The notes: generated by a model from the sequence alone, not told the origin. A stretch of 64,000 nt of DNA from an uncultured Chromatiales bacterium (GCA_964526195.1 CAZGIH010000017.1:131888-195887), one strand, 5' to 3'; shown: positions 3,873 through 53,815, numbered from the stretch's first letter. Translations and numbers: made by a program.

Positions 3873-3881
3873 GCAACCACT

Positions 3882-13176: not shown

Positions 13177-13177
13177 G

Positions 13178-13960: not shown

Positions 13961-13979
13961 GGTCCGGTTCTTTCTCGTG

Positions 13980-33433: not shown

Positions 33434-33641
33434 GCCGGTAGCGCTGGTATTCCTCTTCCGACAGTCCGCGCGCCTCTTCTTCCAGCAAGACCGGAATGTC
33501 GTCGCGCACCGGGTAAGCCAGGCGCGCCGACAATGAAATCAATTCCTGCTGCTCACGGTCGTACAGCAGCGGGCCCTTGGTGACCGGGCAGACAAGGATA
33601 TCCAATAGTCTTTTGTCCATCTGTTCCTGACTCCTGCTCAT
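33423..33641 (-). CDS. ycaR: Trm112/YcaR family protein
   Basis: [14 protein letters not shown]...L...DIPVLL motif. The start ATG at 33641 overlaps the lpxK stop (ATGA). Confidence 0.7.
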
Positions 33642-36490
33642 GTCCTCGCTTCGGCATCCAAGGAATCCAGTGCCTTCGCCTTTCGATTCTCCTCGACGAC
33701 ACGTTGCGCGCTGCCGATGATTTCCTCGGCAACAACCGGTTCCAGCGCTACGTCGACCTCCAAAGAATACCACCGTTCACGGGCAAAACGCTCGCACTTG
33801 ACCGCATCCTTGGGCGTCATGATTACCGCGTGACCATCCGCAAAGTCGAGTTGTCCGGCCCGGAAAGCGTGGTGATCCTCGTAGAGGTGCGGAATCGCGT
33901 CGATCCCGGCGCTGGCCAAGGATTCCAGGAACCGGTGTGGATTCCCGATCCCGCAGACCGCATGCACGGTCTGCCCCGCAAAGCTGGACAGCGGGGTCGT
34001 GCTGCCGTCAAGCAAAGAGCGCAGGTGTTTCACCTGCAAGTCAAACCGGTGTTCTCCTGGCTCCGGATCTCCTCCGTGCACCAAGATCCAATCGGCCAAA
34101 CGTGCACGCCCGAGCGGCTCTCTCAACGGCCCGGCAGGCAGGCACAAGCCGTTGCCGTGCCGGCGTTTGCCGTCCACCACCAGGATCTCGATCTCCCGCG
34201 ACAAGCCCAAATGCTGCAACCCGTCATCCGACAAGATGATGCTGACGGTATGCCGCTCGCAAAGCGCCTGCGCGGCAGCAACCCGGTCCGGGCCTGCAAA
34301 CACGGGACAGCCCGTCTGTGCCGCAATCAGAACCGCTTCCTCCCCGACCTCATCGGGGCTGGTCGCGGCATCAACCTCTCGGGGCCAGGTTGGACTGTCG
34401 CCCCGGTAGCCCCGGCACACGATTCCGACCGACACCCCCAAGCTTCGAAGCCGGAGCGCAAGCCAGACCACCAGAGGGGTTTTCCCGGTGCCTCCGACGC
34501 TCAGGTTGCCGATGACTGCCACAGGCACGGGCAAGGCGGCCGGCCGATTCAGCCAACGACGCCAGAGCCGTCGCAGGAACACGCCGGTGCGATACAGCCA
34601 ACTCAGCGGTCGCAAGGCCCACACCCAGCGGCTATCCTCGTACCAGACAGTCTCAGCAAAACGCGTCACCCAGGACTGATGCCGGGTGCTCTCTTCCTCC
34701 AGCAGTTCCCCGCGGCGGGGCGGGCGTTCTTCGACATCTCCCGTATCCTGGAATTGATGCTGATAGAGCTTTCTGTAGACCTGATTCCTCTGAATCAACT
34801 CTTCATGCGTGCCCTGTTCGACGACCTCGCCTTGATCCAGGACGACGATCCGGTCTGCACGTTCCACCGTCGACAATCGATGCGCGATGATCAGGGTGGT
34901 GGAAACTTCCATGATCTTGTCTAAGGCCTCCTGCACATACCGCTCGGACTCGCTGTCCAGCGATGAGGTCGCTTCGTCCAGGATCAGGATCGGTGCTCGC
35001 TTGTACAGGGCTCGGGCCAAGGCCAGGCGCTGTCGCTGACCCCCAGAGAGCTGTACACCCCCTTCCCCGATGATGGTCTCCAGGCCTTGTGGCAGGTGAG
35101 CCACAAATTCGTCGACGTGCGCACTGCGCAGCGCCAACTCCAGGTCATGCTGCTGATCCGGATCCACTCCATAGGTGATGTTGTTGCGCACCGTGTCGTT
35201 GAACAGCACCACGTTCTGTCCCACATAGCTGATCAGCCCCCGCAGATTGGACAACTGCAGGTCGTTGATCGGAATGTCGTCGATCCGGATTTCTCCACTC
35301 TGCGGGGCGTAAAAACGCGGCAACAGGTTGGCGAGGGAAGACTTGCCGGAACCGGAACGCCCGACCAAGGCCACGGTCTCGCCACGTCGGATCGTCAGCG
35401 AGACATTGCGAAGCGCTTCGCGATCCGTGTTGCGGTAACGCAAACTGATCCGGTCATAGACGATCGAATGCTGCAGATCCTGCTTGGAATGTTCGCCCTG
35501 ATCCTGTTCCACCGGGGTATCCAGCATCTGGAAAACCTGTTGTCCGGCGGCGATGCTCTGTTGCAGCCGGGTGTTGACCTGCACCAGATTGCGTGCCGGA
35601 GCCAGCAGCATCAGCATGGCGAACATGAACGATACGAACCCACCGACCGTAATGGTGCTGAGCACTCCTTCCAGCGTCACCAGGTAGACGATGCCGGCCC
35701 AGGCCAGCCCGACCAGCAGCATGATGATCGAAGAGACCAAGGCCGCCATCTGTTGCGTGCGAACCTGTCGCTTCCGGAAATGCTCGGTCGTCTCATCGAA
35801 ACGTGTTTTTTCCATCGTCTCGGCCTGGAACACCTTCACGACCCGGTAACCTTGAATTACCTCCTGGGCGTTCTGCACGGTCGCAGTAAGCGCCTCCATC
35901 ATGCGGTGGCTAAGCTTCCGGACTCTTCGGTTGCTGCTTGGAATCAGCCAGGCAAACACCGGCACGGCCGCCAGGAAGGCAACCGTCAGGATCCAACTCA
36001 CGTACAGCATCCAGCCGACCAGGCCGATCACCATCAGGCTGTCCCGGATCAGGATAGTGAGGCTTTTCGACGCCGCCGTTGTCACGCCCTCGACGTGGCT
36101 GGTGATGCGCGCCAGGAAATCGCTGGAAGCCGTATGGTCGTGGGTTTCCGCTGGAAATTCGAGCAGGCGTGCAAACATTTTCCGCCGCAGGTCCCGGACC
36201 AGGCGCGCACCAATCTGCGCCATGCAGGAGGCGCTGAGGTACGAGCCGACCGCTCGCAGCACGAAAATCCCGATCAACGCCAGCGGTACCCAGCGGATGA
36301 CGTCCGGCTGCTGCTCGACGATCGCGCCATCCAGGATCGGTTTCATCAGCGCCGACAATGCGGGGCCTGTTGCAGCCTCCATCGCCATGCCGAGCACCGC
36401 CAATGTCAGGATGCCGCTCTGACCTTGCAGGGCAAGCCGCAGCAACTGCCGATAAATGTCCATGCCGGAACGGCGCGTAATCTCGTTCAT
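33638..36490 (-). CDS. msbA-lpxK: Fused lipid A ABC exporter MsbA (N-terminal, about 590 aa) + tetraacyldisaccharide 4'-kinase LpxK (C-terminal, about 330 aa), single 950-aa ORF
   Basis: ABC transmembrane and ATPase motifs ([23 protein letters not shown]). These run through a roughly 30-aa linker with no stop and no Met into the LpxK N-terminus (LRPLSWLY...[13 protein letters not shown]). Confidence 0.85.
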
Positions 36491-39551: not shown

Positions 39552-40794
39552 AGCGCAACACCTCGGCCGGCATGACCTGCAACGCCTTACGCGCCGGGTA
39601 AACGGCAGCGATCACAGACAGGAGAATCGAAGCTACCGATGCAATCACCACGTCTCCCCAAAGCAATTGTGACGGAATCTCACTAATGTAATAAACTTCC
39701 GGCGAAAAGACCTTGAAACTAAAGGCTTTTTCTATCATTCCAACGACCACCTGAAGGTTGTAGGACAAGGCCACCCCCCCGCCGACTCCCAGCGCCGTCC
39801 CCCCAAGACCGATCGTCAAGCCTTGCAACAGGAAGACTTGGAGTGTCCCGCGCTGGGTCATGCCTAAAGTGCGCAGTACGGCGATATCGGAGCGCTTTTC
39901 CAGCACCGTCATCAATAGCGCAGAAATAATGTTGAACGCCGCCACCAGCACGATCAGCATCAGAAGGAGAAACAGCATGGTTTTTTCCATCTGGATCGCT
40001 TTGAAGAAGCCGTTGTCCAGATCCGACCAGTCCAGCACCCAGTAACGCCCGTCCAACTCTTCGCGGAACCGGTCAGCCAACCACGGTGCCTTGAACAAGT
40101 CCTGGAGACGGACTTTCAGGCCGCCGACCTCCCCTTCGCCCAGCGCCAGCGCCTGGCGGGCATCCTCCAGGTGCACCAAGGCTAGGTGCCGGTCGTAGCT
40201 CCGCATGTCGAGATCAAAGATCCCGACTACCTCGAAACGGCGGAATTTGGGGAGAAGTCCGGCGATCGTACTGGCTGCCCGCGGCACGATCAGGGTCACC
40301 TGATCACCCACCCGGACATTCAAATGTCGAGCCAGTTCATCGCCCAGCACGATCCGGTATGCGCCTGGTTCCAGCCGATCCAGAGTGCCTCGGGTCATAT
40401 GCTGTGCAATTCGGGAAGCTTCCGCCTCCAGCGTCGGCAGCATGCCTCGCAGCCCGACTCCGCTGACACGATCCTGGTAAAGCAGCATTCCCTGGCCTTC
40501 GATGAACGGCGCGCTCGCGACCACTTCCGGGTACTGCGTTAATTGCTCCGCCAGCCCGCGCCAGTCCTGCAACTTCCGGTCCGGCTCGCTGATGCTGATG
40601 TGGGACACCATGCCCAGCAATCGATCCCGAATCTCGGTGTGAAACCCGTTCATGACCGACATCACGGCGATCACCGCGGTCAATCCCAGCGCAATGCCCA
40701 GCGTTGAAACCAACGAGATGAAAGAGATAAAACGATGCCGGTGGCGTGCCCGAAGGTAACGCAAGCCGATGTACAGAGGGACTGGGAGATTCAC
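39544..40794 (-). CDS. lolE: Lipoprotein-releasing system permease LolC/LolE
   Basis: 416 aa FtsX-like permease paired with lolD. Confidence 0.8.
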   Translation of the reverse strand: MNLPVPLYIGLRYLRARHRHRFISFISLVSTLGIALGLTAVIAVMSVMNGFHTEIRDRLLGMVSHISISEPDRKLQDWRGLAEQLTQYPEVVASAPFIEGQGMLLYQDRVSGVGLRGMLPTLEAEASRIAQHMTRGTLDRLEPGAYRIVLGDELARHLNVRVGDQVTLIVPRAASTIAGLLPKFRRFEVVGIFDLDMRSYDRHLALVHLEDARQALALGEGEVGGLKVRLQDLFKAPWLADRFREELDGRYWVLDWSDLDNGFFKAIQMEKTMLFLLLMLIVLVAAFNIISALLMTVLEKRSDIAVLRTLGMTQRGTLQVFLLQGLTIGLGGTALGVGGGVALSYNLQVVVGMIEKAFSFKVFSPEVYYISEIPSQLLWGDVVIASVASILLSVIAAVYPARKALQVMPAEVLRYE

Positions 40795-41978
40795 GGGATG
40801 CGCTGGTCGATTGTCACTTGGGTCGTCGCGTTGGGGGTAACAGCCACCGGCCCGACTTCCCCGATCAGGTCGCCGCTTTGCCGCTCTGCCTGTCCGCTTT
40901 CGCTAATGCGTGCCACCACCATGACTTCGCGGGCCTTGGACAAGTTCATCTCCGGCATCATTGCCAAGGTGTCGTCCAGCACCACCTGTACCGGGAACTC
41001 ACCGGCCGCGCCGCGCCAGATCGCGAGCGGCATGGGCGGGCCGTCAATGCGGCGCGCGTATACGAACAGGGTCGCGTCCGGATTGTAGGCTTCCACAAAT
41101 GCCGGGTCCAGCGTCACTTCCACCTGCAGGGATGGGCCGATCTCGGGTTCGCCAGCTTCACGCCTAGCTTCGTCCAGCCAATTCTCGACCATCGCGCGGA
41201 CGCCATCCTCTTCTACCGGCAGGACCATGAGCAGCCGCTCCCAAGACTGAACCGCCGCATCTGCATTCCCTCTCTGCCAGGACGCCCAGCCGAACAGCCA
41301 CAAGGCTTTCTGGTGAGCCGGGTCCAGGTCCAGCGCCCGCGACAGGTATTCCATGGCCTCGTCCGAGAACCAGTCTCCGCCCGCCATCGCCATGGCGTCC
41401 GCCAGCGCCACCAGTGCCGAGGGGTCCGAATATTCCAGCAAGGCGTTGGCATGCATCCATGCGCTCACTGCCTCCGGCCCGCGCCCCTGCTCCCGGTAAA
41501 AATCTCCAAGTTCCGCCCAGGCATTCGCTTCCTGAGGGTTCTCGTCGACCTGCTGCAGCAGGCGTTCATGCAGTGTCTCTACCTGTTCAGTCTCGTCCGG
41601 CGCACCACCGAATATTGCGAAACGCGTCAGTTCGCTGGACGCCAGCATGAGGCCAACGCTGACGATCACCACGCCGAGCGCAAGCCAGATCGCGGTTCGC
41701 CCTTCCTGTCTCGCAGGTTCGGCGGCACCCTCACCGACTTCTTCTACATCTTCGAGGAGGCTGCGGTCCAGTTCCGCCTCGGCCTCGCCGAACAACTCCG
41801 GCGAAAGCCAGCCGATCTCGACGTCCTGCTGCAATTCGTCCCGACGGAGGTTGTAAGCGTGAGTCAGGATGTCGCGCATGGACTCGGAGCGCGGCCGCCG
41901 CTTCGCCCACCAGGGATAGAGCACGAAGATCAGCGCCAGCACCAGCAGCGCAAGGCAACCTGCGAAAAAGCCCCACAT
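40791..41978 (-). CDS. ccmI: c-type cytochrome biogenesis protein CcmI (CycH), TPR
   Basis: N-terminal TM helices plus TPR repeats. Last gene of the ccm operon. Confidence 0.75.
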   Translation of the reverse strand: MWGFFAGCLALLVLALIFVLYPWWAKRRPRSESMRDILTHAYNLRRDELQQDVEIGWLSPELFGEAEAELDRSLLEDVEEVGEGAAEPARQEGRTAIWLALGVVIVSVGLMLASSELTRFAIFGGAPDETEQVETLHERLLQQVDENPQEANAWAELGDFYREQGRGPEAVSAWMHANALLEYSDPSALVALADAMAMAGGDWFSDEAMEYLSRALDLDPAHQKALWLFGWASWQRGNADAAVQSWERLLMVLPVEEDGVRAMVENWLDEARREAGEPEIGPSLQVEVTLDPAFVEAYNPDATLFVYARRIDGPPMPLAIWRGAAGEFPVQVVLDDTLAMMPEMNLSKAREVMVVARISESGQAERQSGDLIGEVGPVAVTPNATTQVTIDQRIP

Positions 41979-42418
41979 CAGTCGTCACCCCGCTTCAGGA
42001 CTTTCGCGAGCCGTTCACGTTCTACATCCGACAAACCGCCGGATGCCCGTGCGTGCCTGCGGCGGATGCGGCGCAGCAATAACCAGGCAGTAAGAGCCAG
42101 CAATACGAATGGGCCTGTCCACAGGGCCACCGTGCGCCAAGCAAACGGGGGTCGGTACAGGATAAAGTCGCCATAGCGCGCCTGCAGATGTTCAATGATC
42201 TGCTTATCAGTCATACCCTGGTCGATCAGGTCCCGGACGCGCTTGCGCAGGTCGCCCGCCAGCTCCGCATCGGAGTCGGCCAGCGACTGGTTCTGGCAGA
42301 CCAGGCAACGCAGTTCGTACAAGAGCGCCTGGTATCGCTCGTCGCTCGTTTCGTCGGCAGCCAGGCATGCGCTGCCCATGAAGAGCAGGCAGAACCCCCA
42401 AGTCGTTATCCGCTTCAT
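41978..42418 (-). CDS. ccmH: Cytochrome c-type biogenesis protein CcmH
   Basis: LRCLVCQNQSL (LRCxxC) motif. Confidence 0.85.
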   Translation of the reverse strand: MKRITTWGFCLLFMGSACLAADETSDERYQALLYELRCLVCQNQSLADSDAELAGDLRKRVRDLIDQGMTDKQIIEHLQARYGDFILYRPPFAWRTVALWTGPFVLLALTAWLLLRRIRRRHARASGGLSDVERERLAKVLKRGDD

Positions 42419-42933
42419 GACCTCTCTCCGCGGATGCGCGCCAGGATCTCTTCCCGGTAGGCTTTCTCGTCCAGTGCGCCGATGTGCTTGTAGCGGATTA
42501 CGCCATCCGGGTCCAGCAGGAATGTTTCCGGGACCTTGTACACGCCCAGTTCGATTCCCACCTCGCCATACTCGTCGAAGGCGCTGGAACGATACGGATT
42601 GCCATAGACCTGCAGCCAGTTCCGGGCTTCATCACGCGTGTCCCGGTGATTAATCCCGTACAGTGCCAACTGCTGCGACAAGCGCATTAGCAGTTCGTGC
42701 TCTTCCAGGCAAGTGGTGCACCAACTGGCCCAGACATTGAGCAGGCTCCATTCGCCACGAAGCACTGCGGAATCGAATTTCTCTTCGGCCGAGCTCAGAC
42801 GTTCCGCCTGAAAGGCTGGAACCGGCAAGCCAACCAGTGGAGAACTAACCCGCGACGGGTCGCGGGTCAGGCCGATCGCCAGCATGACGACCAGTCCCGC
42901 AAACACGACTACCACCAGCCAACCACGCATCAT
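42415..42933 (-). CDS. ccmG: Thiol:disulfide interchange protein CcmG/DsbE
   Basis: WASWCTTC thioredoxin motif. The start at MMRGW (42933) gives an ATGA overlap with ccmF. Confidence 0.85.
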   Translation of the reverse strand: MMRGWLVVVVFAGLVVMLAIGLTRDPSRVSSPLVGLPVPAFQAERLSSAEEKFDSAVLRGEWSLLNVWASWCTTCLEEHELLMRLSQQLALYGINHRDTRDEARNWLQVYGNPYRSSAFDEYGEVGIELGVYKVPETFLLDPDGVIRYKHIGALDEKAYREEILARIRGERS

Positions 42934-44885
42934 GCCCGTACCCTCCCGCGCCGATAACGGTAACGACGATCCGACAGCGCCAGCAATCCGCCGAACGCCA
43001 TCAGCAACGCGCCGCCCCACAACCATTGGATAAACGGTTTGACATACAGCCGGACACCCCAGCCTCCGCCGGGCTGGGCCACCCCGAGCGCCGCATACAC
43101 GTCGCGCCAGACTGTCGAGTGGATGGCAGCCTCGGTCATCGGCGAGGACTGCACCAGATAGGTACGTTTCTCCGGCCGCAATTCCGCCACCAACCCTCCC
43201 TCCCGATAGACGGAAAGGTGTCCCTGCTGGGCCTGGTAGTTCGGCCCGTCCACTTCGCGCACGCCGTGGAACACGAATTCATGTTCCGCGAACACAACCC
43301 TGTCGCCTTCGTTCATCACCAGTTCCCGCTCCACCGAAAACGCCGTCGTGAACGCGATGCCAAGCGCAATCACGCCAAGTCCGGCATGCGCACAGGTCAT
43401 GCCGATCATGTGCCGGGGCAAGCGCCGCAGGCTATAGCCAGTGCTGGTGCCGCGCCGCATGCGGGAGAACTGCCGCCACAACGCCGTTAGCGTCCCGGAA
43501 ATGCACCAGACCCCGAGCATGGTCCCCACCAGTACCAAGGGCGACGTGGAGCCGAAAACCGCCCACGGGACGGCGGTGCCTAGCGCAAGCGCCAGTATCA
43601 GCGGCACCTGAAGCCGGCGCAGCAGTTCGCGGGCCCGGGTCTTTTTCCAACGTGAGATCGGTCCGATCGCGGCGAGGAACAACAGCGGCAGCATCAACGG
43701 CAGGAACACGAGGTTGAAGTACGGCGGCCCGACCGACATGGACGGCAGCCCGAGAACGTCCACGATCAACGGGTACAGGGTTCCAAGCAGGATGGCAAAC
43801 GTGGCGATCAACAGGAACACGTTGTTGAACAAAAGCAGGGTTTCCCGGGAAAGCAATTCGAAGTGGCCCGGGCTCTCGATGTGGTGGGCGCGCGTCGCGT
43901 ACAGGGTCAGCCCTCCTCCAACGACCACCGCCAGGAATCCCAGAATGTAAACCCCGCGGGCGGGATCGTTCGCAAACGCATGCACCGACACCAGCACTCC
44001 GGAACGCACCAGGAAGGTCCCGAGCAGGCTCAGGGAAAACGCCAGCAGTGCCAACAGCACGGTCCAGCGCTTGAAGGTATTGCGCTTTTCGGTGACCGCC
44101 AGGGAATGAATCAATGCGGTCCCGACCAACCATGGCATGAACGAGGCGTTCTCTACTGGATCCCAGAACCACCAACCGCCCCAGCCGAGTTCATGGTAGG
44201 CCCACCAACTACCAAGGCCGATGCCGAGAGTCAAAAACATCCAGGCGGCCGTTACCCAAGGCCGCGTCCAACGCGCCCAGGCCGCATGTAGGTGGCCGCC
44301 CCACAATGCTGCGATGGCAAAAGCGAAGGCCACCGCGAATCCGACATAGCCCATGTACAACATCGGCGGATGGATCACCAAGCCCGGATCCTGCAGTAAC
44401 GGATTGAGGTCGCGCCCCTGCATGGCCGGGGGAATCAAGCGGTCAAATGGATTGGAAGTCGCCAGCATGAAAGCGAGGAATCCGAGACTGACAAACCCCA
44501 GCACGGCCAGCACGCGCGCCCGGAACAGCATGGGGAGCCGACGACTCAGCGCAACCACCGCAACGGTCCAAGCCGACAGGACCAGGGACCACAGCAACAG
44601 GGAGCCTTCATGCCCGCCCCAAACGCCAGAAATCCGGTAGGCCAGCGGCAGCTCCGTGTTGGAGTTGTTGGCAACGTAGCGAACAGAGAAATCGTGTTCG
44701 ATGAACGCCCAGGTCAACGCAAGGTAGGCGAGCAACACCAGGAACCCTTGTCCCAGCGCCAGCGAAGAGGCGCTGCGCATCCAGGTCGGGTTGCCCCGTT
44801 GGGTTCCCAGGCCCGGCAGAAACGCCTGCAGTGCCGCCAGCACACAGGCCAGGACCAGGGCGAAATGGCCGAGTTCGGGAATCAC
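42930..44885 (-). CDS. ccmF: Cytochrome c heme lyase subunit CcmF
   Basis: 651 aa polytopic protein with a WWxD-like region (GWGGWWFWD). GTG start. Confidence 0.9.
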   Translation of the reverse strand: MIPELGHFALVLACVLAALQAFLPGLGTQRGNPTWMRSASSLALGQGFLVLLAYLALTWAFIEHDFSVRYVANNSNTELPLAYRISGVWGGHEGSLLLWSLVLSAWTVAVVALSRRLPMLFRARVLAVLGFVSLGFLAFMLATSNPFDRLIPPAMQGRDLNPLLQDPGLVIHPPMLYMGYVGFAVAFAFAIAALWGGHLHAAWARWTRPWVTAAWMFLTLGIGLGSWWAYHELGWGGWWFWDPVENASFMPWLVGTALIHSLAVTEKRNTFKRWTVLLALLAFSLSLLGTFLVRSGVLVSVHAFANDPARGVYILGFLAVVVGGGLTLYATRAHHIESPGHFELLSRETLLLFNNVFLLIATFAILLGTLYPLIVDVLGLPSMSVGPPYFNLVFLPLMLPLLFLAAIGPISRWKKTRARELLRRLQVPLILALALGTAVPWAVFGSTSPLVLVGTMLGVWCISGTLTALWRQFSRMRRGTSTGYSLRRLPRHMIGMTCAHAGLGVIALGIAFTTAFSVERELVMNEGDRVVFAEHEFVFHGVREVDGPNYQAQQGHLSVYREGGLVAELRPEKRTYLVQSSPMTEAAIHSTVWRDVYAALGVAQPGGGWGVRLYVKPFIQWLWGGALLMAFGGLLALSDRRYRYRRGRVRA

Positions 44886-45331
44886 CAGGAGATCCCGACC
44901 GGGGCCTGCCCCGCTTCGGTCAAAGCCTCCGCCACTTCCGGCGGCATATAGTTCTCATCGTGCTTGGCCAACACCTCTTGGGCCACGAACACGCCGGCTT
45001 CGTTCAACTTGCCCAAGGTGACGATGCCCTGCCCTTCGCGGAACAGGTCCGGCAGCAGGCCACGGTAGTGCACCGGCAGGCTATGTGCCCCGTCGGTCAA
45101 CGCAAAGCGAACTTCCATCGAGCCGGTCTCCTGCTGCACACTGTCCCGAGCCACCAAGCCTCCGAGGCGGAAGGTTGTCTGTGGCTCTACCAGACCGGCG
45201 GCGACCTGCGAAGGGCTGTAGAAATACAACAGGTTCTGCTGGAAGGCGTACAGCATCAGCGCCACTCCGGCGGCAACCCCGACGGAAACGGCCACGGCCA
45301 AGCCAAGACGGCGTTTCTGGCGGGCATTCAT
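44882..45331 (-). CDS. ccmE: Heme chaperone CcmE
   Basis: 149 aa, N-terminal TM helix, OB-fold core. Confidence 0.9.
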   Translation of the reverse strand: MNARQKRRLGLAVAVSVGVAAGVALMLYAFQQNLLYFYSPSQVAAGLVEPQTTFRLGGLVARDSVQQETGSMEVRFALTDGAHSLPVHYRGLLPDLFREGQGIVTLGKLNEAGVFVAQEVLAKHDENYMPPEVAEALTEAGQAPVGISW

Positions 45332-45380
45332 GACGCCATTTTAACGAAGGTTGTAGTTCCGGGGGGCCGGATGCCGTCGC

Positions 45381-45533
45381 TCAGTGGGCTTTCCCCTGCC
45401 CGCTGCCCTTGCCCCTGAGCCGCCGGTGCCGCCACCACGGCACAGCGGCGTTGCCGACCAGCACAACCGCCACCAGTCCGTAGGCGCTCCATACGAAGAA
45501 CGCATAGCCTCCCATCGCCAGGAATTCAACCAC
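45381..45533 (-). CDS. ccmD: Heme exporter protein CcmD (50 aa; absent from the ORF track)
   Basis: The frame reads (GTG)VEFLAMGGYAFFVWSAYGLVAVVLVGNAAVPWWRHRRLRGKGSGQGKAH. MGGYAFFVW is identical to the E. coli CcmD core. AGGAGG lies 6 nt upstream of the GTG, and the 5' end overlaps the ccmC stop. Confidence 0.75.
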   Translation of the reverse strand: MVEFLAMGGYAFFVWSAYGLVAVVLVGNAAVPWWRHRRLRGKGSGQGKAH

Positions 45534-46284
45534 GCCGCACCTCCTCAACCCACTGCCGGTCCGCTTCCTGTTCCAGGATGCGCACCCGGATACGCGCCAG
45601 CAGGACCGTCGAGAAATAAAGGATGAACATCGTGCCCATGAACAACAGCGGCCAAAGCATGCTGGGATGTGCCGCCGGCTTGTCGAAGCGGGTCACTGTG
45701 GCCCCTTGGTGCAAGGTGTTCCACCACTCCACGGAGTAATGGATGATCGGGATGTTGACGATTCCGGCCAAGGCAAGCACGGCTGCCACCCGCGCGCCCT
45801 TGCGGGAGTCCGCGAAAGCGTTGTGCAGTCCCAGTACGCCGATGTAGAGGAACAGCAGGATCAACTCCGACAGCATGCGGGCATCCCCCCACTGCCACCA
45901 AGTGCCCCACATCGGCTTGCCCCACAGCATGCCGGTACCGAGTGCCAGTGCCGTGAACCAGGCGCCAAGCACCGCGCACTCGTAGACCGCAATCTCGGCC
46001 AGTTTCACGTGCCAGACCAAGGCCACCAGACCGGCTCCCGCCATCACCGTGTAAACCATCAGTGACAACCAGGCCGACGGGACATGGACGTAGATGATGC
46101 GGTACGCCTCGCCTTGCTGGTAGTCGGGCGGCGCGACGACCAACCCCCAATACAGACCCACGGCGAAACCGAGCACGGTCAGCACGGAAAGCCATGGCAA
46201 CCAGGCACTGGCAACCGCATAGAAGTGCCGGGGTGAAGAAAGTACTGTAAATCTATGAAACATAATGTTATTCCTGGCTGACAC
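45526..46284 (-). CDS. ccmC: Heme exporter protein CcmC
   Basis: 252 aa, WGxxWxWD tryptophan-rich motif (WGKPMWGTWWQWGD). Confidence 0.9.
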   Translation of the reverse strand: MSARNNIMFHRFTVLSSPRHFYAVASAWLPWLSVLTVLGFAVGLYWGLVVAPPDYQQGEAYRIIYVHVPSAWLSLMVYTVMAGAGLVALVWHVKLAEIAVYECAVLGAWFTALALGTGMLWGKPMWGTWWQWGDARMLSELILLFLYIGVLGLHNAFADSRKGARVAAVLALAGIVNIPIIHYSVEWWNTLHQGATVTRFDKPAAHPSMLWPLLFMGTMFILYFSTVLLARIRVRILEQEADRQWVEEVRRG

Positions 46285-46939
46285 GCAATGCGGCCGCGGT
46301 TGCGAGCGGAGCCAGGCTCACGCCCAGGAACAGCAAACCCGCCAGCAGCAGCAAGGCTCCGTCGGCAGGCCGCCCTTCCACCGCCGCATGCACGGCCCCG
46401 GCGCCGAACATCAGCACCGGGATGTAAAGCGGCAGCACGATCAACGCCAGCAGAATCCCACCGCGCGGCAGGCCCAAGGTCAGCGCCGCGCCCAGCGCGC
46501 CGATCCAGCACAGCACGGGCATGCCCAAGGCCATCGAGGCGGCCAGCACCCAAAGCGCCTCGCCGCGGAGGCCCAGCCATCCAGCCAACACCGGACCGAC
46601 CAGGATGAGCGGCAACGAAACGATCATCGCATGCGCGATGAGTTTCGCCAGCGCCAGCCAGCCCAATGATACCCCACTGGTTACCCACAACTCGATGCCG
46701 CCCTCCTCGAGGTCGGCCGAAAAAAGCGTTCCCTGGGCCAGCAGAACCGCCAGCAGGGCGGCGACCCAAAGCAAGGACGGCGCAGCCTGCCCCAACAATG
46801 CCAGATCCGCTCCCGCCCCAAGCGGAAACAGCAACATCACCAGGGCATAAAACACAAGCGGCTGCAACAACTGGCCACGTCGCCGCCATGCCAGCCGGAG
46901 CTCGCGCCGGAAAACGGCAGCAAACGCCCGGCCCATCAT
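46268..46939 (-). CDS. ccmB: Heme exporter permease CcmB
   Basis: The start at MMGRAFAAVFRRELRLAWRR aligns with the E. coli CcmB N-terminus. ATGA overlap with ccmA. Confidence 0.85.
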   Translation of the reverse strand: MMGRAFAAVFRRELRLAWRRRGQLLQPLVFYALVMLLFPLGAGADLALLGQAAPSLLWVAALLAVLLAQGTLFSADLEEGGIELWVTSGVSLGWLALAKLIAHAMIVSLPLILVGPVLAGWLGLRGEALWVLAASMALGMPVLCWIGALGAALTLGLPRGGILLALIVLPLYIPVLMFGAGAVHAAVEGRPADGALLLLAGLLFLGVSLAPLATAAALRVSQE

Positions 46940-47517
46940 GCACCGAGCTGCAGGGTCCAGCCCTGCAGGGAGTCCGAAATTTCCCGATGCGTCGCCATCA
47001 CGACCGCCCCGCCCCGGTCCAGTTGCCGGTGCACTTGGGTTTCGAACCATTTCACCGAGGTCTCGTCCAATGAGGTCAGGGGTTCATCCAGCAACCAAAG
47101 CCGACGGGTACTGAACGCCAGCCGGGCCAGCGCAACGCGCCGGGCCTGTCCCTCTGACAGGCGTCCCGCGCGCGTTTCGAAGAAGGCACCAAGCCCCACC
47201 GCTTCGAGCGCTGCAGCCGAGGCTCCGGCCTCGTCTCCCTCCAGAGCCGCCATGAACTCCAGGTTCTCGCGGGCCGTCAGGCCAGCACTGACCGCCACCC
47301 GGTGGCCGACCCACAGCACCGGCTCACGCTCCCCTTGCCAGACCAGTTCCCCTTGTTCAGCCGGCGACAAGTCCGCCAGGATCCTCAGCAGCGAAGTCTT
47401 GCCGCTGCCGTTGGCACCGCGCACCAGCCACAGTTGCCCGGCATCGACCTTGAACGAGAGGTTCTCGAACAGGGATCGTCCGTCGCGACGACAGCCGAGT
47501 CCGCGCGCCTCAAGCAT
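46936..47517 (-). CDS. ccmA: Heme exporter ATP-binding protein CcmA
   Basis: The start at MLEARGLGCRR aligns with E. coli CcmA. Walker A GANGSGKTS. Confidence 0.85.
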   Translation of the reverse strand: MLEARGLGCRRDGRSLFENLSFKVDAGQLWLVRGANGSGKTSLLRILADLSPAEQGELVWQGEREPVLWVGHRVAVSAGLTARENLEFMAALEGDEAGASAAALEAVGLGAFFETRAGRLSEGQARRVALARLAFSTRRLWLLDEPLTSLDETSVKWFETQVHRQLDRGGAVVMATHREISDSLQGWTLQLGA

Positions 47518-47567
47518 GTGCTCTCCCGGTTTTGACAGGCAAAGCGGTTGCCAGTAAAGTGAGTCGT

Positions 47568-48104
47568 ATGTGGAAAACGGTCTCAGCGGCAGCGGCAATC
47601 ATACTGGTCGCGGTCGGGTTCGCAGGTTCCATGGGTGCCTCTATGGTACTGGATGCGACCAACACCACGGAATTCTGCACCTCCTGCCACTCCATGCAGT
47701 GGAACGAGGCCGAGTGGATGGACTCCATCCATTTCAAAAATGTATCGGGAGTCCGCGCCAGTTGCGCCGACTGCCATGTTCCGCAATCGCTTATACCCAA
47801 GCTCGGCGCCAAGCTGATCGCAGCGCATGATGTCTGGGGCGAATTGATGGGAACCATCGACACGGCCGAGAAATTCGAGGCACACCGCTGGCACATGGCC
47901 AGCCGGGTCTGGGACCGGATGAAGGCCAACGACTCCCGAGAATGCCAAAGCTGCCATACCTACGAGGCCATGGATCTTGACGAGCAGGACCGCAGCGCAC
48001 GCAAGAAGCATCACAGGGCCCCGATGCGCGGCAAGACCTGCATCGAGTGCCACAAAGGCGTCGCACACAAGATGCCGAGACGCCCGGTCGCGGCGAAGGA
48101 CTGA
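47568..48104 (+). CDS. NapC/NirT/CymA-family membrane-anchored tetraheme cytochrome c
   Basis: N-terminal TM helix plus four CxxCH motifs (CTSCH, CADCH, CQSCH, CIECH). Confidence 0.85.
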   Translation: MWKTVSAAAAIILVAVGFAGSMGASMVLDATNTTEFCTSCHSMQWNEAEWMDSIHFKNVSGVRASCADCHVPQSLIPKLGAKLIAAHDVWGELMGTIDTAEKFEAHRWHMASRVWDRMKANDSRECQSCHTYEAMDLDEQDRSARKKHHRAPMRGKTCIECHKGVAHKMPRRPVAAKD

Positions 48105-48301
48105 TTTTTAAGGCGATCGCCTGCGAAAAACCAGCAAAAAATTTGCAGATACGAGTCCTTTTCCAGGCAGAAAATCTCCAGACCCCAACCTTATCCGGTC
48201 GGGATTCATCCTGTATCTTCGACTGCCTTTCTCTTGTGTTACGATACCGCCCCGATAATGCATCATTGGGGTGTTCCCGGACCTTTGCAGGAGGAGATTC
48301 A

Positions 48302-48979
48302 ATGCATTCGCAATTCCTTTCTCGATCTATTCTTGCCAGCGCCCTTATGCTGCCGCTTGCGTTGCACGCGGATCAGCCCGGAGATGGGGCGTCAATGGCA
48401 TCGGTTGAGATGCTGACCGGCGCATGCGTGGCCTGCCATGGCCCGGCCGGAGCCAGCGTCGGCCCGGCGATACCTTCCCTGGCGGGACTTCCGGCGGTTT
48501 ACTTCATCGGCGCCATGCTTTCCTACAAGCACGGCCAGGACTTGGACGCGGCCGAAGCAGAAGCCGCATCCGACCCCGAACTTGAAGACGTGGAGATCTT
48601 CGCCCGTCACGGCACGATCATGGACCGGCTCGCCTCCGGCTACACCTTGGCTGAAATCAAGGTCATGGCCCACTATTTCGCCGACAAGTCCATCGCCTTG
48701 GCAACTCAGGAATTCGACGCGGAACTTGCGAGCAAGGGTGAGGCCCTGCATTCGGACAATTGCGAGAAATGTCACGAAGAAGGCGGACGATCCACTGTCG
48801 ACGACATGGTCCCGCTCGCAGGGCAATGGAAGCATTACCTGCACTACAGCCTCGCCGACTTCCACGGCGGTGCACGGGGAATGCCGAAGAAGATGAAATC
48901 CCGACTTGAAGAAGTCATGGAGACCGAGGGCGAAGACGGCCTTGCGGCCCTCATCAACTACTACGCCAGCCAGCAGTAA
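48302..48979 (+). CDS. fccA: Flavocytochrome c sulfide dehydrogenase, diheme cytochrome c subunit
   Basis: Signal peptide, two CxxCH motifs (CVACH, CEKCH), strong SD (GGAGGAGattcaATG). Lies immediately upstream of fccB. Confidence 0.8.
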
Positions 48980-48998
48980 TCGCGGAGGAGTAAAGATC

Positions 48999-50285
48999 AT
49001 GACAACCCTGACAAGACGCGGCTTCCTGAAAGCGACCGGCGGCATTGCGGCCGTAGGCACGATCGGGATGAGTTTCCCCCAGCTTGCCCTCGGCGGCAAC
49101 AAGAATGTGGTGGTGATTGGCGGTGGCGCTGCTGGCGCGGTTGCAGCCAAGCACATCAAACTGGCGGATTCCGGAATTAACGTCACCCTAATCGAAGCCA
49201 ACAATCACTATTACACCTGCTTCATGAGCAACGAGGTCATCGGAGGCGACCGGGACATCTCGACCATCCGTCACGGATACGAGGGCTTGGCAAACCACGG
49301 CATCCAGGTGGTGCACTCCAAGGCCACGGGAGTGGACACCGATGCGCGCACCGTCACGACCGAGGGCGGAGACAGCTTTCCGTACGACCGGCTCGTCGTC
49401 AGCCCCGGCATCGACCTAAAGTGGAATGCGATCGAAGGTTACGACATGGCGGCAGCCAAAGCCATGCCCCACGCCTGGAAGGCCGGTCCCCAGACTGCAC
49501 TGCTACGCAGCCAACTCGAAGCCATGGACGACGGCGGCACGTTCATCATCTGCCCGCCCGGCAACCCATTCCGCTGCCCGCCCGGGCCCTACGAACGAGT
49601 CTGCCAGGTTGCCCATTACTTCAAGGAGAACAAACCAAATTCAAAAATCCTGGTGCTTGACGCCAAGGACAAGTTCTCGAAGATGGGCCTGTTCACGCAG
49701 GGATGGGAGCGTCGCTACGACGGCATGATCGAATGGATCTCCGGCACTGACACTGCCGGGGGCATCGCCGAGGTTAATACCGCCGACATGACGGTAACCA
49801 CCGAATTCGGCGACACTCACAAGGGTGCGGTAATCAACGTCATCCCACCGCAAAGCGCCGGACAGATCGCGCTGGCGGCCGGATTGGCCGACGACTCCGG
49901 CTGGTGCCCGGTCCATCTTGATACCTTCGAGTCGAAACTGGTGCCGGGCGTGCACGTCATCGGCGATGCCAGCATCGCCACTGGACTGCCGAAATCCGGA
50001 TATGCGGCCAATTCCGAAGGGAAGGTCTGCGCGGCGGCGGTCGTCGCCATGCTGGCCGATGAGGAACCCGGCACGCCATCCTATGTCAATACCTGCTACA
50101 GCCTGATTGCACCGGATTACGGCATTTCGGTTGCGGCGGTCTACCGCCTGGCGGAAGACAAGAGCAAGGTCGCCAAGGTGGCCGGAGGCCTGACGCCCTC
50201 GGACGCCTCGGACGAGATGCTGGCCCGCGAGGTTCAGTATGCGTACAGTTGGTACAACAACATCGTGGCGGACATGTTCGCCTGA
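48999..50285 (+). CDS. fccB: Flavocytochrome c sulfide dehydrogenase, FAD-binding subunit (Tat-exported)
   Basis: Tat signal [13 protein letters not shown]-binding [16 protein letters not shown]-fold flavoprotein. SD GGAGGAG upstream. Confidence 0.85.
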
Positions 50286-50317
50286 CACCGTCAGGGCGGA
50301 ACCCGCCAAACCCCAAA

Positions 50318-50348
50318 ACGCGGGGGCCTTAGTGGCCCCCGTTTTTGT
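50318..50348 (+). terminator. Rho-independent terminator after fccB (cgggggcc-ttagt-ggcccccg + TTTTTG)
   Basis: 8-bp GC stem and 5-nt loop followed by a T tract. An A-tract upstream suggests bidirectionality. Confidence 0.7.
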
Positions 50349-53300
50349 CTTTCCCCTTTCTCGTGCTTGAATTCCCTCCGCTTCCCTCCGCCGGCTCTCG
50401 CCTAGGCTGCGGACAACTGTATGGCGCGGCCCATGCCTTGGCCATTTCCGAGCTCGCCTGCCGGAACTCTGGCCTCACTCTAGTTGTTGCCCCCGACATC
50501 GCCGCCCAAGTCGCGCTGGAAGTCGAATGCCGATTTTTCCTCGGCCCGCAGACAGACCTCCTGTTGTCGTTCCCTGACTGGGAGACCCTGCCCTATGACC
50601 TGACCTCGCCGCATAGCGAGATCATCTCTCAACGCCTGCGGACACTCCATTGTCTCCAAACCCGAAAGGCAAACAGCCTGCTGATCACATCCGCCCCCAC
50701 CTTGCTGCAACGCCTGTGTCCGCCTGATCATGTCCACCGCCAAACGACCATCCTTTCCACCGGCGGCAAAATCGAAATCGAACAACTGCGCCAGCGACTG
50801 GACCTGGCTGGTTACCAGAACTGCTCCCAGGTCGTGGCTCCGGGAGAATTCGCCGTGCGCGGGTCGTTGCTTGATCTCTTTCCAATGGGATCCGAGTCTC
50901 CATGCCGACTCGACTTCCTCGACGACTGCATCGACTCCATCCGCATGTTCGATCCCGAACGCCAAATCTCGACCGAACGAATCGAACGCCTGGACATCCT
51001 GCCGGCACGAGAATTTCCGCTCGATCCGGAAACCATCGAGCGGTTTCGGAAGAATTTCCGCAGGGCGTTTGACATTGACCCGTCGCAAAGTCCCATCTAC
51101 CGGGATATCAGCGACGCGATCGTCCCTGTCGGCATCGAATACTACCTGCCCCTGTTCTTCGAGGGAACAGCCAGCCTTTTCGATTACCTGCCCGCTGAAA
51201 CCACCATCGTGTGCTGGAAAGACGTGGACGATGCCGCAGCCCAAACCCTGAGCGAGATCGAGACCCGTTGCGAAAGTCGGCTCCACGACGTTGAGCACCC
51301 GCCTTTGCCGGTTCCGATGTTGTATCTGAGCGAATCCAAATTGCAGGAAGCCCTAGCAGACTATCCGCGACTGGATCTCAACCGTTTTGAACACGAGAAG
51401 CAGTCGGAGGAAACTGCCTTCAACTACGCCTCACGCGCGCTCCCGGAACTCAAGGTGCGGCCACAGGACAAAGCCCCCGCCCGTGCCCTGCGCCAATTTT
51501 TGTCCTCTTCTTCACGGAGAATCCTGTTCACGACCCACTCTCCGGGACGGCGCGAGCAGTTGAAGGAGCGCCTGGGAGCCCTGAATATCCAAGTCAAGCC
51601 CGTGGAAAGTTGGGAAGACTTCCTTCGGCAGGGGCCGGACCTGGCGCTGGCGGTCGCGGACATTGAAGAGGGTTTCGAGCTTCCCAAGGCCGGGATTGCG
51701 ATCATCCCCGAGTCTCATCTGTTCCCGGACCGCACCCCCCAGCAACACCGTCAGCGGAGCCGAAGGGATCCCAAGGCCATCCTGTCCGAGCTTGCCAACC
51801 TCAAGCACAACAGTCCAGTGGTTCATGAAGACTATGGCGTCGGCCGCTACCAGGGGTTGCGCAAGTTGGAAATCGACGGGATCGAGCAGGAGTTTCTGCT
51901 CATTCAGTACGCCGACACGGACCGGCTGTATGTGCCGATCATGGAGTTGCATCGGATTACCCGTTACAGCGGCGCGGACCCGGAAGACGCGCCCCTGCAT
52001 TCTCTGGGCGGGGATCAATGGCAGAAAATCAAGCACCGGGCTGCGAAACGCGCCTACGATGCGGCGGCCAAGCTTCTGGAGGTCCAAGCCCGTCGCAATG
52101 CGCAGGGTGGGTGCACACTCAAAATCCCGTCGGATTATCCGAAATTCGAGGCGGCCTTCCCTTTCGATGAAACCCCGGACCAAGCGCAAGCCATCCGCGA
52201 AGTCTTGGAAGGTCTGGAAAGCGATTCACCCATGGACCGGATTGTCTGCGGCGATGTCGGCTTCGGAAAAACCGAAGTCGGGATGCGGGCCGCTTTCGTC
52301 GCTGCCTTCAACGGCTTCCAAGTCGCCATTCTGACTCCGACCACCCTGCTTGCCCAACAGCACGGCAAGACTTTTCGTGATCGGTTTGCCGATTGGCCTG
52401 TTCGGATCGAGGCAATCTCCCGCTTCCGGACTGCCCGAGAACAAGCCGGCATTCTGGCTGATCTCGCCGAGGGGAAACTGGACATCATCATCGGCACACA
52501 CCGGCTGCTACAGGATGACGTGAAATTCCACAATCTCGGACTGGTCATCATTGACGAAGAGCAGCGCTTCGGCGTGCGCCACAAGGAGAAATTGAAGGCG
52601 CTGCGGGCCCGGACCAACCTGCTGACCCTGACCGCCACCCCGATTCCCCGCACCTTGAACATGTCGCTGTCCGGTCTTCGAGACCTCTCGATCATCGCTA
52701 CCGCGCCTGCCCATCGACATGCGATCAAGACTTACGTCACCCAGTGGAACCAGCAGCAGATCCGAGAGGCCTGCCTGCGCGAGCTGAAACGGGGCGGGCA
52801 GATCTATATCCTGCACAACCGAACTGCTTCGATCGATCAAGCCGCCGAAACCATGCAGCAAATCGTTCCGGAGGCCGAAGTGCGGGTTGCGCACGGGCAG
52901 ATGCGGGAACGTGAACTGGAAGCCGTCATGCGTGACTTCTATCGTCAGCGGTTCAATATCCTGGTTTGCACCACGATTATCGAGAACGGCATTGACATCC
53001 CGACTGCCAATACCATCATCATCAATCGCGCGGACCATTTCGGACTGGCCCAGTTGCACCAACTGCGCGGCCGGGTCGGGCGTTCGCACCACCTCGCCTA
53101 CGCCTACCTGACTTGCCCGCCCCTGCAAACCATGACGCCCGATGCGAAGAAGCGGATCGAAGCCATCGAAGCCATGGAGGAACTTGGCTCCGGCTTCATG
53201 CTGGCGACCCAAGATCTTGAAATTCGCGGCGCTGGCGAACTGCTGGGCGAAGAACAGAGCGGCCAGATCCAGCAAATCGGGTTCGCGTTATATCACCGCC

Positions 53301-53815
53301 TGCTGCAGCGCGCGGTGGACACCCTGAAGAAAGGGGTGCTGCCGGAACTCGACAAGCCGCTCGAGCACGGGCCTGAGATCGACCTAGGCCTGCAGGCGTT
53401 GATCCCGGATGACTACCTCCCCGACGTCTACCTTCGGCTCACGCTGTACAAGCGGATTGCCGGTGCGACTTCCGACGCGGAACTCGACGACCTGCAAGTC
53501 GAGATGGTCGACCGTTTCGGGGCGCTGCCGCAGGCGGTCGCCAACCTGTTCGCCATCACCCGCCTGAAGCTGGAGATTACGACATTTGAATTTCTCCGTA
53601 AAATACAGTTGACCCGGCACGAAGGCCGAATCACGTTCGGCGATCCCGGCCCGGAGCCGGAATCCGTCGTCCGGATCATCGAGGACTCGTCCCACCGCTA
53701 CCGCCTAGACAACAAGATGCGCCTTCACTTCGAACTGGACATGCCGACTCTAGAGGACCGGATCCATGCCATCCGCGGCCTGACGCACCGCATCGGGACC
53801 CGGGAGGCTGCATGA
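50345..53815 (+). CDS. mfd: Transcription-repair coupling factor Mfd
   Basis: 1156 aa, collinear with E. coli Mfd (UvrB-homology, CarD/TRCF domain, superfamily-2 helicase motifs GDVGFGKTEV, DEEQRFGV). The start is uncertain (TTG 50345 or GTG 50363). Confidence 0.9.
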   Translation: MSFPFLVLEFPPLPSAGSRLGCGQLYGAAHALAISELACRNSGLTLVVAPDIAAQVALEVECRFFLGPQTDLLLSFPDWETLPYDLTSPHSEIISQRLRTLHCLQTRKANSLLITSAPTLLQRLCPPDHVHRQTTILSTGGKIEIEQLRQRLDLAGYQNCSQVVAPGEFAVRGSLLDLFPMGSESPCRLDFLDDCIDSIRMFDPERQISTERIERLDILPAREFPLDPETIERFRKNFRRAFDIDPSQSPIYRDISDAIVPVGIEYYLPLFFEGTASLFDYLPAETTIVCWKDVDDAAAQTLSEIETRCESRLHDVEHPPLPVPMLYLSESKLQEALADYPRLDLNRFEHEKQSEETAFNYASRALPELKVRPQDKAPARALRQFLSSSSRRILFTTHSPGRREQLKERLGALNIQVKPVESWEDFLRQGPDLALAVADIEEGFELPKAGIAIIPESHLFPDRTPQQHRQRSRRDPKAILSELANLKHNSPVVHEDYGVGRYQGLRKLEIDGIEQEFLLIQYADTDRLYVPIMELHRITRYSGADPEDAPLHSLGGDQWQKIKHRAAKRAYDAAAKLLEVQARRNAQGGCTLKIPSDYPKFEAAFPFDETPDQAQAIREVLEGLESDSPMDRIVCGDVGFGKTEVGMRAAFVAAFNGFQVAILTPTTLLAQQHGKTFRDRFADWPVRIEAISRFRTAREQAGILADLAEGKLDIIIGTHRLLQDDVKFHNLGLVIIDEEQRFGVRHKEKLKALRARTNLLTLTATPIPRTLNMSLSGLRDLSIIATAPAHRHAIKTYVTQWNQQQIREACLRELKRGGQIYILHNRTASIDQAAETMQQIVPEAEVRVAHGQMRERELEAVMRDFYRQRFNILVCTTIIENGIDIPTANTIIINRADHFGLAQLHQLRGRVGRSHHLAYAYLTCPPLQTMTPDAKKRIEAIEAMEELGSGFMLATQDLEIRGAGELLGEEQSGQIQQIGFALYHRLLQRAVDTLKKGVLPELDKPLEHGPEIDLGLQALIPDDYLPDVYLRLTLYKRIAGATSDAELDDLQVEMVDRFGALPQAVANLFAITRLKLEITTFEFLRKIQLTRHEGRITFGDPGPEPESVVRIIEDSSHRYRLDNKMRLHFELDMPTLEDRIHAIRGLTHRIGTREAA

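Follow-up and report, generated by a model that had tools for sequence, protein, structure and literature searches.

A 64-kb stretch of DNA from an uncultured Chromatiales bacterium (the window; all positions are counted along its full length) carries, on one strand, a gene for a tetraheme cytochrome c of the NapC/NirT family followed by fccA and fccB, which encode the diheme cytochrome subunit and the flavin adenine dinucleotide (FAD) subunit of flavocytochrome c sulfide dehydrogenase (FCSD). A preliminary description of this locus proposed that the three gene products form a membrane-coupled sulfide-oxidising module, and that the close divergent spacing between the cytochrome gene and ccmA implies co-regulation of the module with cytochrome c maturation. 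The elements it named all lie within a base of where it had placed them (Table 1). Based on the gene neighbourhood in related genomes and on residues conserved in the cytochrome, we propose that the cytochrome probably links the sulfide dehydrogenase to the membrane quinone pool.

Table 1 Positions of the cytochrome–fccAB genes and of the features adjoining them in the window
Feature	Position	Strand	Evidence or description
ccmI, H, G, F, E, D, C, B	40791–46943	-	Open reading frames (ORFs); CcmI domain match; rest of the cytochrome c maturation operon
ccmA, heme exporter ATPase	46936–47517	-	NF010061 and TIGR01189 above cutoff
Divergent spacer between ccmA and the NapC-like gene	47518–47567		50 bp between start codons
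Invariant 32-nt block, probable promoter/operator of the NapC-like gene	47531–47562		Promoter scan, conservation
NapC/NirT-family tetraheme cytochrome c gene	47568–48104	+	ATG at 47568, 178 residues, PF03264
Non-coding gap from the NapC-like gene to fccA	48105–48301	+	197 bp
fccA, diheme FCSD subunit	48302–48979	+	Sec-type signal peptide, two CxxCH, 1FCD_C match
fccB, Tat-exported FAD subunit of FCSD	48999–50285	+	FCSD domains, Tat signal
Intrinsic terminator closing the module	50320–50352	+	Hairpin 50320–50342, then T tract
mfd, transcription-repair coupling factor	50345–53815	+	ORF; downstream of the module

The cytochrome matches the family profile PF03264 over positions 9–173 of 174 (E 4.9e-65; 218.9 bits, cutoff 24.1). 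Its orientation, its four CxxCH motifs (beginning at residues 37, 66, 126 and 158) and its N-terminal anchor are all as previously described, the anchor being the only hydrophobic helix in the protein (residues 10–28; Kyte-Doolittle 19-residue mean 2.12, and at most 0.8 elsewhere). The protein is therefore predicted to consist of one N-terminal membrane helix and a periplasmic heme domain. NrfH is the sole relative in the PDB and only a distant one (2J7A, E 5e-6), hence there is no close template, and the alignment places M43, K82 and D88 of the cytochrome opposite M49 (the heme 1 ligand), K82 and D89 of NrfH. All three residues are invariant or nearly so in an alignment of 33 homologues, and the CxxCHxM heme-1 motif and the quinol-site Lys and Asp are shared with NrfH (2J7A/2VR0) and CymA. 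The Lys is important for function in those proteins: K82 of NrfH is the equivalent of CymA K91 and is needed for quinol binding, and its mutation in CymA abolishes interaction with quinol (PMC2762525). As these NrfH/CymA-type residues are kept, a quinone site is plausibly retained in the cytochrome.

The identification of the two FCSD subunits was confirmed by domain, motif and structure-sequence matches. The fccA product matches the cytochrome subunit of FCSD from Allochromatium vinosum across both heme domains (1FCD_C, E 2.8e-39), with CxxCH motifs at residues 42 and 154, while its best NCBIfam match, the periplasmic diheme shuttle PdsA (NF049874, 112.8), is under the cutoff of 330 and reflects general diheme-fold similarity only. 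FccB carries the central (PF21706, E 1.6e-51) and flavin-binding (PF09242, E 1.5e-28) domains of FCSD, together with a Tat signal (TIGR01409, 20 bits; cutoff 16.7), and it matches 3VRD_B (E 1.4e-160) and 1FCD_A alike at about 1e-160. Its FAD-binding and active-site cysteine motifs, including NTCYS, are identical to those of 3VRD_B in alignment; in the A. vinosum enzyme we take the covalent-FAD cysteine and the active-site pair to be Cys42, Cys161 and Cys337.

The cytochrome gene is indeed upstream of fccAB on the same strand, but the claim that it lies directly upstream holds in part only, since a 197-bp non-coding gap precedes fccA, ending in a ribosome-binding site (GGAGGAG, 48290–48296). 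We found no terminator-like site on the + strand of this gap, so the cytochrome gene does not have a terminator of its own there, a possibility that had been raised as a way to refute the module. As described, a strong terminator follows fccB, with a 9-bp stem (eight G-C pairs) and a T run; its folding energy is − 23.8 kcal/mol (z − 3.99) and none of 200 shuffled sequences folded as well. The lack of a terminator in the gap and the strong one after fccB support transcription as one unit, and the three genes would form a single electron-transfer module transcribed from the conserved block ahead of the cytochrome gene through to the terminator. The gap gave no sign of structured RNA (folding z − 0.36 and − 1.31) and matched no Rfam family, the only weak Rfam match (E 0.62) being the terminator downstream of fccB.

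To determine how widely the arrangement occurs, the GTDB collection, with each species represented by one genome, was scanned with an aligned set of homologues that included the cytochrome. Of the loci found, the best 80 (about 46–97% identity; cited here by L numbers) were kept, and their neighbouring genes were identified by tblastn. An fccA and/or fccB homologue was present in the fetched stretch of about 59 of the 80. Gene order was counted in the 57 loci where the sequence downstream of the cytochrome gene extended for 4.5 kb or more: in 35 the cytochrome gene, with or without a gene for an ankyrin-repeat protein after it, is followed by fccA and fccB on one strand, in a further eight fccA/B lies within 5 kb in another arrangement, and in 14 there is no fccAB near the cytochrome. 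Represented are, among others, Chromatiaceae, purple sulfur bacteria (Thiohalocapsa, Thiorhodovibrio), symbionts of lucinids and of Solemya, Thiodiazotropha, Sedimenticola, Thiotrichales, Thiomargarita, Acidiferrobacteraceae and several Alphaproteobacteria (Thermopetrobacter, Hyphomicrobiaceae, Rhodospirillales). The converse comparison began from eight FccB homologues (65–71% identity) which were obtained by an independent protein search and whose contigs were examined. In seven of the eight, fccA is immediately preceded by a PF03264 gene, and five of those seven have the full block of the window, with ccmFEDCBA divergent from cytochrome-fccA-fccB-mfd-csiV; at the eighth, L087, fccAB-mfd has neither the cytochrome nor ccm alongside. 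The co-occurrence of napC-like genes with fccAB in other genomes, which the preliminary description had named as a check, is therefore borne out, and the arrangement is far beyond chance and recurs across classes of Proteobacteria.

The closest relatives of the window are metagenome-assembled genomes (MAGs), namely another uncultured Chromatiales bacterium (L001, cytochrome 97% identical) and 'Candidatus Porisulfidus' (L002, 96%), a sponge-associated MAG lineage represented by a 1.57-Mb chromosome. In the locus of a second 'Ca. Porisulfidus' genome (L045, 10574–14031), the NapC-like gene and fccAB are parted by an insertion of three unrelated genes, which encode an SxtJ-like protein, a carbamoyltransferase and a GDSL-like lipase; the ccmA junction is kept.

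Linkage of this kind could also arise between genes whose products are not partners. The cytochrome might be a general membrane hub, as CymA is, or the donor of another enzyme, and owe its linkage with fccAB solely to a shared response to one condition, e.g., low sulfide or low oxygen. The 14 loci without fccAB nearby are in keeping with this, as are those where rearrangement or insertion has separated the two (L007, L045, L087) and a wider comparison of sulfur oxidisers, conducted in a Thioalkalivibrio study, in which fccAB had no conserved neighbours among A. vinosum, Chlorobium, Paracoccus and Thiobacillus (PMC6382920). However, gene order and orientation persist in different classes of Proteobacteria and over a sequence divergence of 45–97%, no other catalytic partner recurs beside the cytochrome, and its clade is distinct from that of nap-linked NapC. 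We therefore think it unlikely that cytochrome and FccAB are mere neighbours, and functional coupling between them is, in our judgement, likely. The loci without fccAB imply that FccA may be only one of several partners of the cytochrome. Six of the 14 keep the ankyrin gene, often with a c4-like diheme cytochrome in place of fccAB.

A further question is whether the cytochrome is a true NapC, NrfH or TorC that was stranded when a nap, nrf or tor operon was split, a possibility which the preliminary description had itself named for nap and nrf. Its best NCBIfam matches are indeed the models for TorC (TIGR02162; 215.6, cutoff 478.2, N-terminal half of the model only) and NapC/NirT (TIGR02161; 207.6, cutoff 310.6), ahead of NapC (NF007906; 184.7, cutoff 349) and NrfH (TIGR03153; 53.3, cutoff 134.2), and it shares with NapC its Pfam family, its size, four CxxCH motifs, an N-terminal anchor and 48–50% identity, the latter measured against homologues in nap operons with napA upstream (Hahella, L077; Ruegeria, L079). 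Nevertheless, every one of these scores is below the curated cutoff, and with 178 residues and four hemes the protein is without the C-terminal fifth-heme domain of TorC/DorC. In a neighbour-joining tree the fcc- and ankyrin-linked cytochromes form a clade apart from nap-operon NapC, with L077 and L079 outside it and the window cytochrome inside. The annotated ORFs of the window contain no nap, nir, nrf, tor or dms reductase genes, and clustering of neighbouring ORFs in the 80 loci found no nap, nir, nrf or tor reductase gene among the recurrent neighbours of the orthologues. Cutoffs, neighbourhood and tree position effectively refute a split operon, and a stray NapC is highly improbable. Judged by its sequence, the cytochrome belongs to a distinct, FCSD-associated subfamily of the broad PF03264 family and is not NapC, NirT, TorC or NrfH; it would differ from NapC furthermore in having a sulfide dehydrogenase as its partner and in working in the reverse direction.

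The gene arrangement itself is not new. Dolata et al. (J Biol Chem 268:14426) reportedly sequenced a 2.6-kb fragment from C. vinosum in 1993 on which the cytochrome was already present. In A. vinosum the four genes Alvin_1095 to Alvin_1092 encode a NapC/NirT cytochrome, an ankyrin protein, FccA and FccB, respectively, and on pyrite compared with sulfide their expression was raised 42-fold, 28-fold, 175-fold and 72-fold, with the flanking genes Alvin_1091 and Alvin_1096 unaffected (PMC11267869). Beyond this 2024 transcriptome, we found no paper in the open-access literature that analyses the linkage of cytochrome and fccAB. The preliminary description had taken FCSD to be normally without an obvious quinone link; the premise that FCSD normally has no such neighbour is wrong for this lineage, where the cytochrome gene beside it is the rule. 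The window and the A. vinosum cluster have the same gene families, order and strand, and the first three listed heme motifs of Alvin_1095 are spaced by 29 and 60 residues as in the window cytochrome. They differ in that the window has the 197-bp gap instead of the ankyrin gene, has an acidic insertion of 22–24 residues in FccA, and is bordered by the ccm operon and by mfd. The NapC-like gene upstream of fccAB is thus common to the A. vinosum-type four-gene cluster and the window, and the ankyrin gene is not; the window holds a streamlined, three-gene, ankyrin-less variant of a cluster known since 1993.

The ankyrin gene is widespread in the survey. Clustering of neighbouring ORFs found a signal-peptide protein of about 310–325 residues whose gene, in 38 of the 80 loci, comes next after the cytochrome gene and in the same orientation; it is a periplasmic protein made of ankyrin repeats (Pfam Ank, E 9e-58). 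These loci span L015–L069 (e.g., L021, 10604–11536, and L052, 10588–11520), and the common architecture is cytochrome, ankyrin protein, FccA, FccB. A module of three components, as originally proposed, is supported by the conserved order and by the co-induction in A. vinosum, but the usual module has this fourth gene. The window and its relatives L001–L014 (at least 60% identity) have a gap of 110–270 bp at the ankyrin position. No ankyrin-like sequence was found by tblastn in the gap or in the whole window, and a search for a remnant of the gene in the 197-bp gap gave no signal even at E = 10. As the ankyrin-less group is nested inside the ankyrin-containing radiation in the neighbour-joining tree, the loss of the gene is derived.

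Fourteen loci, among them L021 (13818–14597), L028, L052, L058 and L066, encode the c4-like diheme cytochrome c (about 260 residues) no more than a few kb from the NapC-like/ankyrin pair, and in several of them it stands in place of fccAB. A counterpart in the window was sought by tblastn, and the only match (E 1.6e-4) is to part of fccA itself.

Loss of the ankyrin gene coincides with the acidic insertion in FccA. This covers residues 80–103 (about 22–24 residues; nt 48539–48610) and contains nine Asp/Glu and one Lys/Arg. It is present in the window, L001–L006 and L008–L014, and missing from all 25 ankyrin-containing clusters as well as from five other ankyrin-less loci; both changes may trace to a single ancestor. 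The C-terminal tail of the window cytochrome is basic (KMPRRPVAAKD, +3), whereas in ankyrin-type clusters the tail has a charge of − 4 to − 11 and the cytochromes end in a strongly acidic, Pro-rich stretch, e.g., EEPDEPDEEE. The pairing of a basic tail with an acidic FccA insertion was rejected as evidence of contact, because the tail charge ranges from +6 to − 7 within the window's clade, which bears the insertion.

In the mechanism that we propose, FccB would oxidise sulfide in the periplasm at its FAD and reduce the two hemes of FccA, steps which are well established in A. vinosum and T. tepidum, whose enzymes are close homologues. The next acceptor would be the membrane cytochrome: FccA would dock on its periplasmic domain of four hemes, the electrons would travel to heme 1, which is proximal to the membrane, and the cytochrome would reduce (ubi)quinone at the site with the NrfH/CymA-type Lys and Asp. 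Running as a quinone reductase, the cytochrome would constitute with FCSD a heme-based sulfide:quinone oxidoreductase system, and electrons entering at the level of quinone would gain the coupling site at bc1 and would supply the reverse flow to NAD+ on which CO2 fixation draws. The periplasmic ankyrin-repeat protein would be a fourth component in most other bacteria, one which was lost in the window's clade.

Several lines of reasoning favour the direction from sulfide to quinone. The hosts are sulfide-oxidising autotrophs, and in A. vinosum expression of the cluster rises under limitation for reduced sulfur. With the hemes of A. vinosum FCSD at about +15 mV and ubiquinone at about +100 mV, the transfer of electrons from FccA to ubiquinone is downhill and that from ubiquinol to FccA is uphill. 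Quinone reductases of the NapC/NirT family have also been proposed in other lithotrophs, reportedly including cytochrome cM552 (CycB) of Nitrosomonas. ImoA of Sideroxydans was likewise proposed originally as a quinone reductase (PMC9600427). The likeness of these two to the window system is one of proposed logic, i.e., from a periplasmic oxidation through a tetraheme membrane cytochrome to quinone in a chemolithoautotroph, and the donors differ, cM552 serving hydroxylamine oxidoreductase with c554 and ImoA the Mto iron oxidation.

The same module could instead run in the opposite direction, with the cytochrome as a NapC/CymA-type quinol dehydrogenase that oxidises (mena)quinol and reduces FccA. 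The onward acceptor would be FccB, as a sulfur or polysulfide reductase, or else other c-type cytochromes and oxidases in a bypass of bc1 that conserves no energy. To our knowledge, every member of the NapC/NirT family characterised so far oxidises quinol and does not reduce quinone. This holds for CymA (PMC2762525) and also for ImoA, which behaved as a quinol oxidase when expressed in Shewanella (PMC9600427). In addition, the c4-like diheme cytochrome found beside the cytochrome in loci without fccAB would fit a general quinol:cytochrome c route. Both NrfH and CymA, which are characterised structurally and biochemically, oxidise menaquinol; the former is held in a fixed complex with NrfA, a nitrite reductase, and the latter supplies many different reductases. 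Against such a direction, electrons would have to move uphill from ubiquinol to the low-potential FccA hemes, and reduction of sulfur by quinol is strongly unfavourable on general thermodynamic values. The cluster moreover occurs in sulfide-oxidising autotrophs and is induced in A. vinosum when reduced sulfur is a scarce electron donor. We therefore regard quinol oxidation by this module as improbable, and give the full model of coupling in the sulfide-to-quinone direction about an even chance of being correct.

Further points weigh against the proposed mechanism. FCSD purifies as a soluble heterodimer which reduces soluble cytochromes, and synteny shows linkage, not physical contact. Knockouts of fccAB in A. 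vinosum oxidise sulfide at wild-type rates (PMC3368242), and the authors of the 2024 study called the function and pathway of the four-heme cytochrome unresolved (PMC11267869). The unequal induction in A. vinosum (42-fold for the cytochrome gene, 175-fold for fccA) also makes a second promoter before fccA possible. Two stretches of about 20 nt in the window's gap (around CCGGTCGGGATTCA and CTTCTCTTGTGTTA.GATA) are invariant, together with the ribosome-binding site, in the window and L001–L003; they might represent an internal promoter or a processing site, and would fit such a second promoter. The promoter scan called no sigma-70-like site in the 197-bp gap. For the membrane-coupled sulfide module as first described, gene linkage thus speaks in its favour, while the direction of electrons and the coupling to quinone are matters of inference.

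The net reaction proposed, from sulfide to quinone, is the same as that of sulfide:quinone oxidoreductase (SQR), which achieves it with a single membrane-associated flavoprotein without hemes, whereas the system of the window would employ three proteins and six hemes. FCSD is abundant and structurally well characterised, its physiological role has been in question for decades, and in textbooks its electrons enter at the level of cytochrome c. The usual view has been restated as FCSD delivering to the cytochrome c pool and SQR to ubiquinone (PMC6382920). We tentatively suggest, at somewhat less than even confidence, that Chromatiales-type FCSD is the peripheral arm of a membrane-coupled, heme-wired sulfide:quinone oxidoreductase rather than a free enzyme feeding only soluble cytochromes; a dedicated cytochrome of the NapC/NirT clade would work 'backwards' as the quinone reductase, aided in most species by the ankyrin protein. 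If true, this would explain the long-unclear role of FCSD in vivo and the lack of phenotype of fccAB mutants where SQR is present. It would also change estimates of the energy yield of sulfide oxidation in both free-living and symbiotic sulfur bacteria, and provide a clear case of a NapC-family protein acting as a quinone reductase. A dedicated and distinct NapC/NirT cytochrome beside fccAB in dozens of sulfur oxidisers, co-induced with it in A. vinosum, would offer a concrete route from FCSD to quinone. The outcome of the comparison, which appears under-appreciated, is that the cytochrome forms its own FCSD-associated clade and is accompanied by fccAB in most genomes that have it.

The second proposal, that the module is co-regulated with cytochrome c maturation, concerns the spacer between the cytochrome gene and ccmA, whose start codons, at 47568 and 47517, are separated by exactly 50 bp, in agreement with the preliminary figure of about 50. 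The ccmA product scores above cutoff for both NF010061 (203 bits, cutoff 195) and TIGR01189 (187.7, cutoff 131.6), and a complete ccmABCDEFGHI operon begins with ccmA; homologues of CcmC and CcmB were found in related loci by tblastn, and Pfam labels show the same syntenic ccm block in L081–L086. Within the spacer lies a 32-nt block without a single difference between the window, L001 and L002. The spacer bases next to the block do vary, and the flanking genes of these three genomes are only 67–88% identical at third codon positions. The block holds a sigma-70-like TTGACA (47532–47537), a 17-nt spacer and TAAAGT (47555–47560), the one site found in the region by the promoter scan, where 0.9 are expected by chance. 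It also holds the inverted repeat GGCAA (47538–47542) and TTGCC (47548–47552), i.e., a perfect palindrome GGCAA-N5-TTGCC. Such a block is a probable promoter/operator of the NapC-like module. Just 7 nt lie between the − 10 box and the ATG of the cytochrome, which implies a nearly leaderless mRNA. In the more distant relatives L083 (3534–3610) and L085 (3344–3424) an extended − 10-like TGCTATAAT ends 11–12 nt before the NapC-like start codon, and very short leaders may be a recurrent feature of this gene.

The block shows that a regulatory element is present, not that ccmA shares it. Bidirectional control from the 50-bp spacer, tying the ccm operon to the heme-rich module, would be compatible with the invariance of the block while flanking third codon positions differ by 12–33% in the three genomes, with a palindrome that reads alike on both strands, and with the ccmA/cytochrome junction being kept where fccAB has moved away (L007, L045). 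Nevertheless, the adjacency is confined to the window's clade: it occurs only in the window, L001–L004, L006, L007, L009, L010, L014, L045, L081–L083, L085 and L086, and is missing from all ankyrin-type clusters as well as from L005, L008, L011–L013, L084 and L088. Beyond the closest relatives, the spacer is 50–150 bp long with varying sequence, and the element is not conserved there. A sigma-54 reading of the palindrome was not statistically unusual, as GGCA-N6-TTGC occurs six times in the window with 3.7 expected, and ccm genes are as a rule housekeeping genes. The co-regulation that was said to be implied by the short spacing therefore does not follow from it, and we consider shared control of ccmA rather doubtful.

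Downstream of the module, Mfd homologues are equally placed in L001–L004, L010 and L014, and according to Pfam labels in L081–L083, L085 and L086. The first possible start of mfd in the window (TTG, 50345) is inside the T tract of the fccB terminator, and the same tight spacing is found in L001–L003. Unless the true start is further downstream, this position would imply read-through or a promoter within the 3' end of fccB.

The remainder of the window is housekeeping DNA and a type II CRISPR-Cas locus. The latter comprises an array at 3307–3873 (period 66 nt, about 8.6 copies, each interpreted as a 36-nt repeat with its spacer), cas1 (4286–5191, − strand) and cas9 (5191–8487, − strand; 1098 residues). 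Between 13 and 25 kb, several ORFs of 180–435 residues have no NCBIfam match (13115–14266, 16751–18909, 23777–25084), and an IS1595-family transposase lies at 21214–22137; this region may be variable or horizontally acquired. At 33638–36490 (− strand), one ORF of 950 residues matches MsbA (residues 22–582) and the lipid A 4'-kinase LpxK (residues 630–916), and would be either a putative fusion of two consecutive functions of the lipid A pathway or an artefact of ORF calling.

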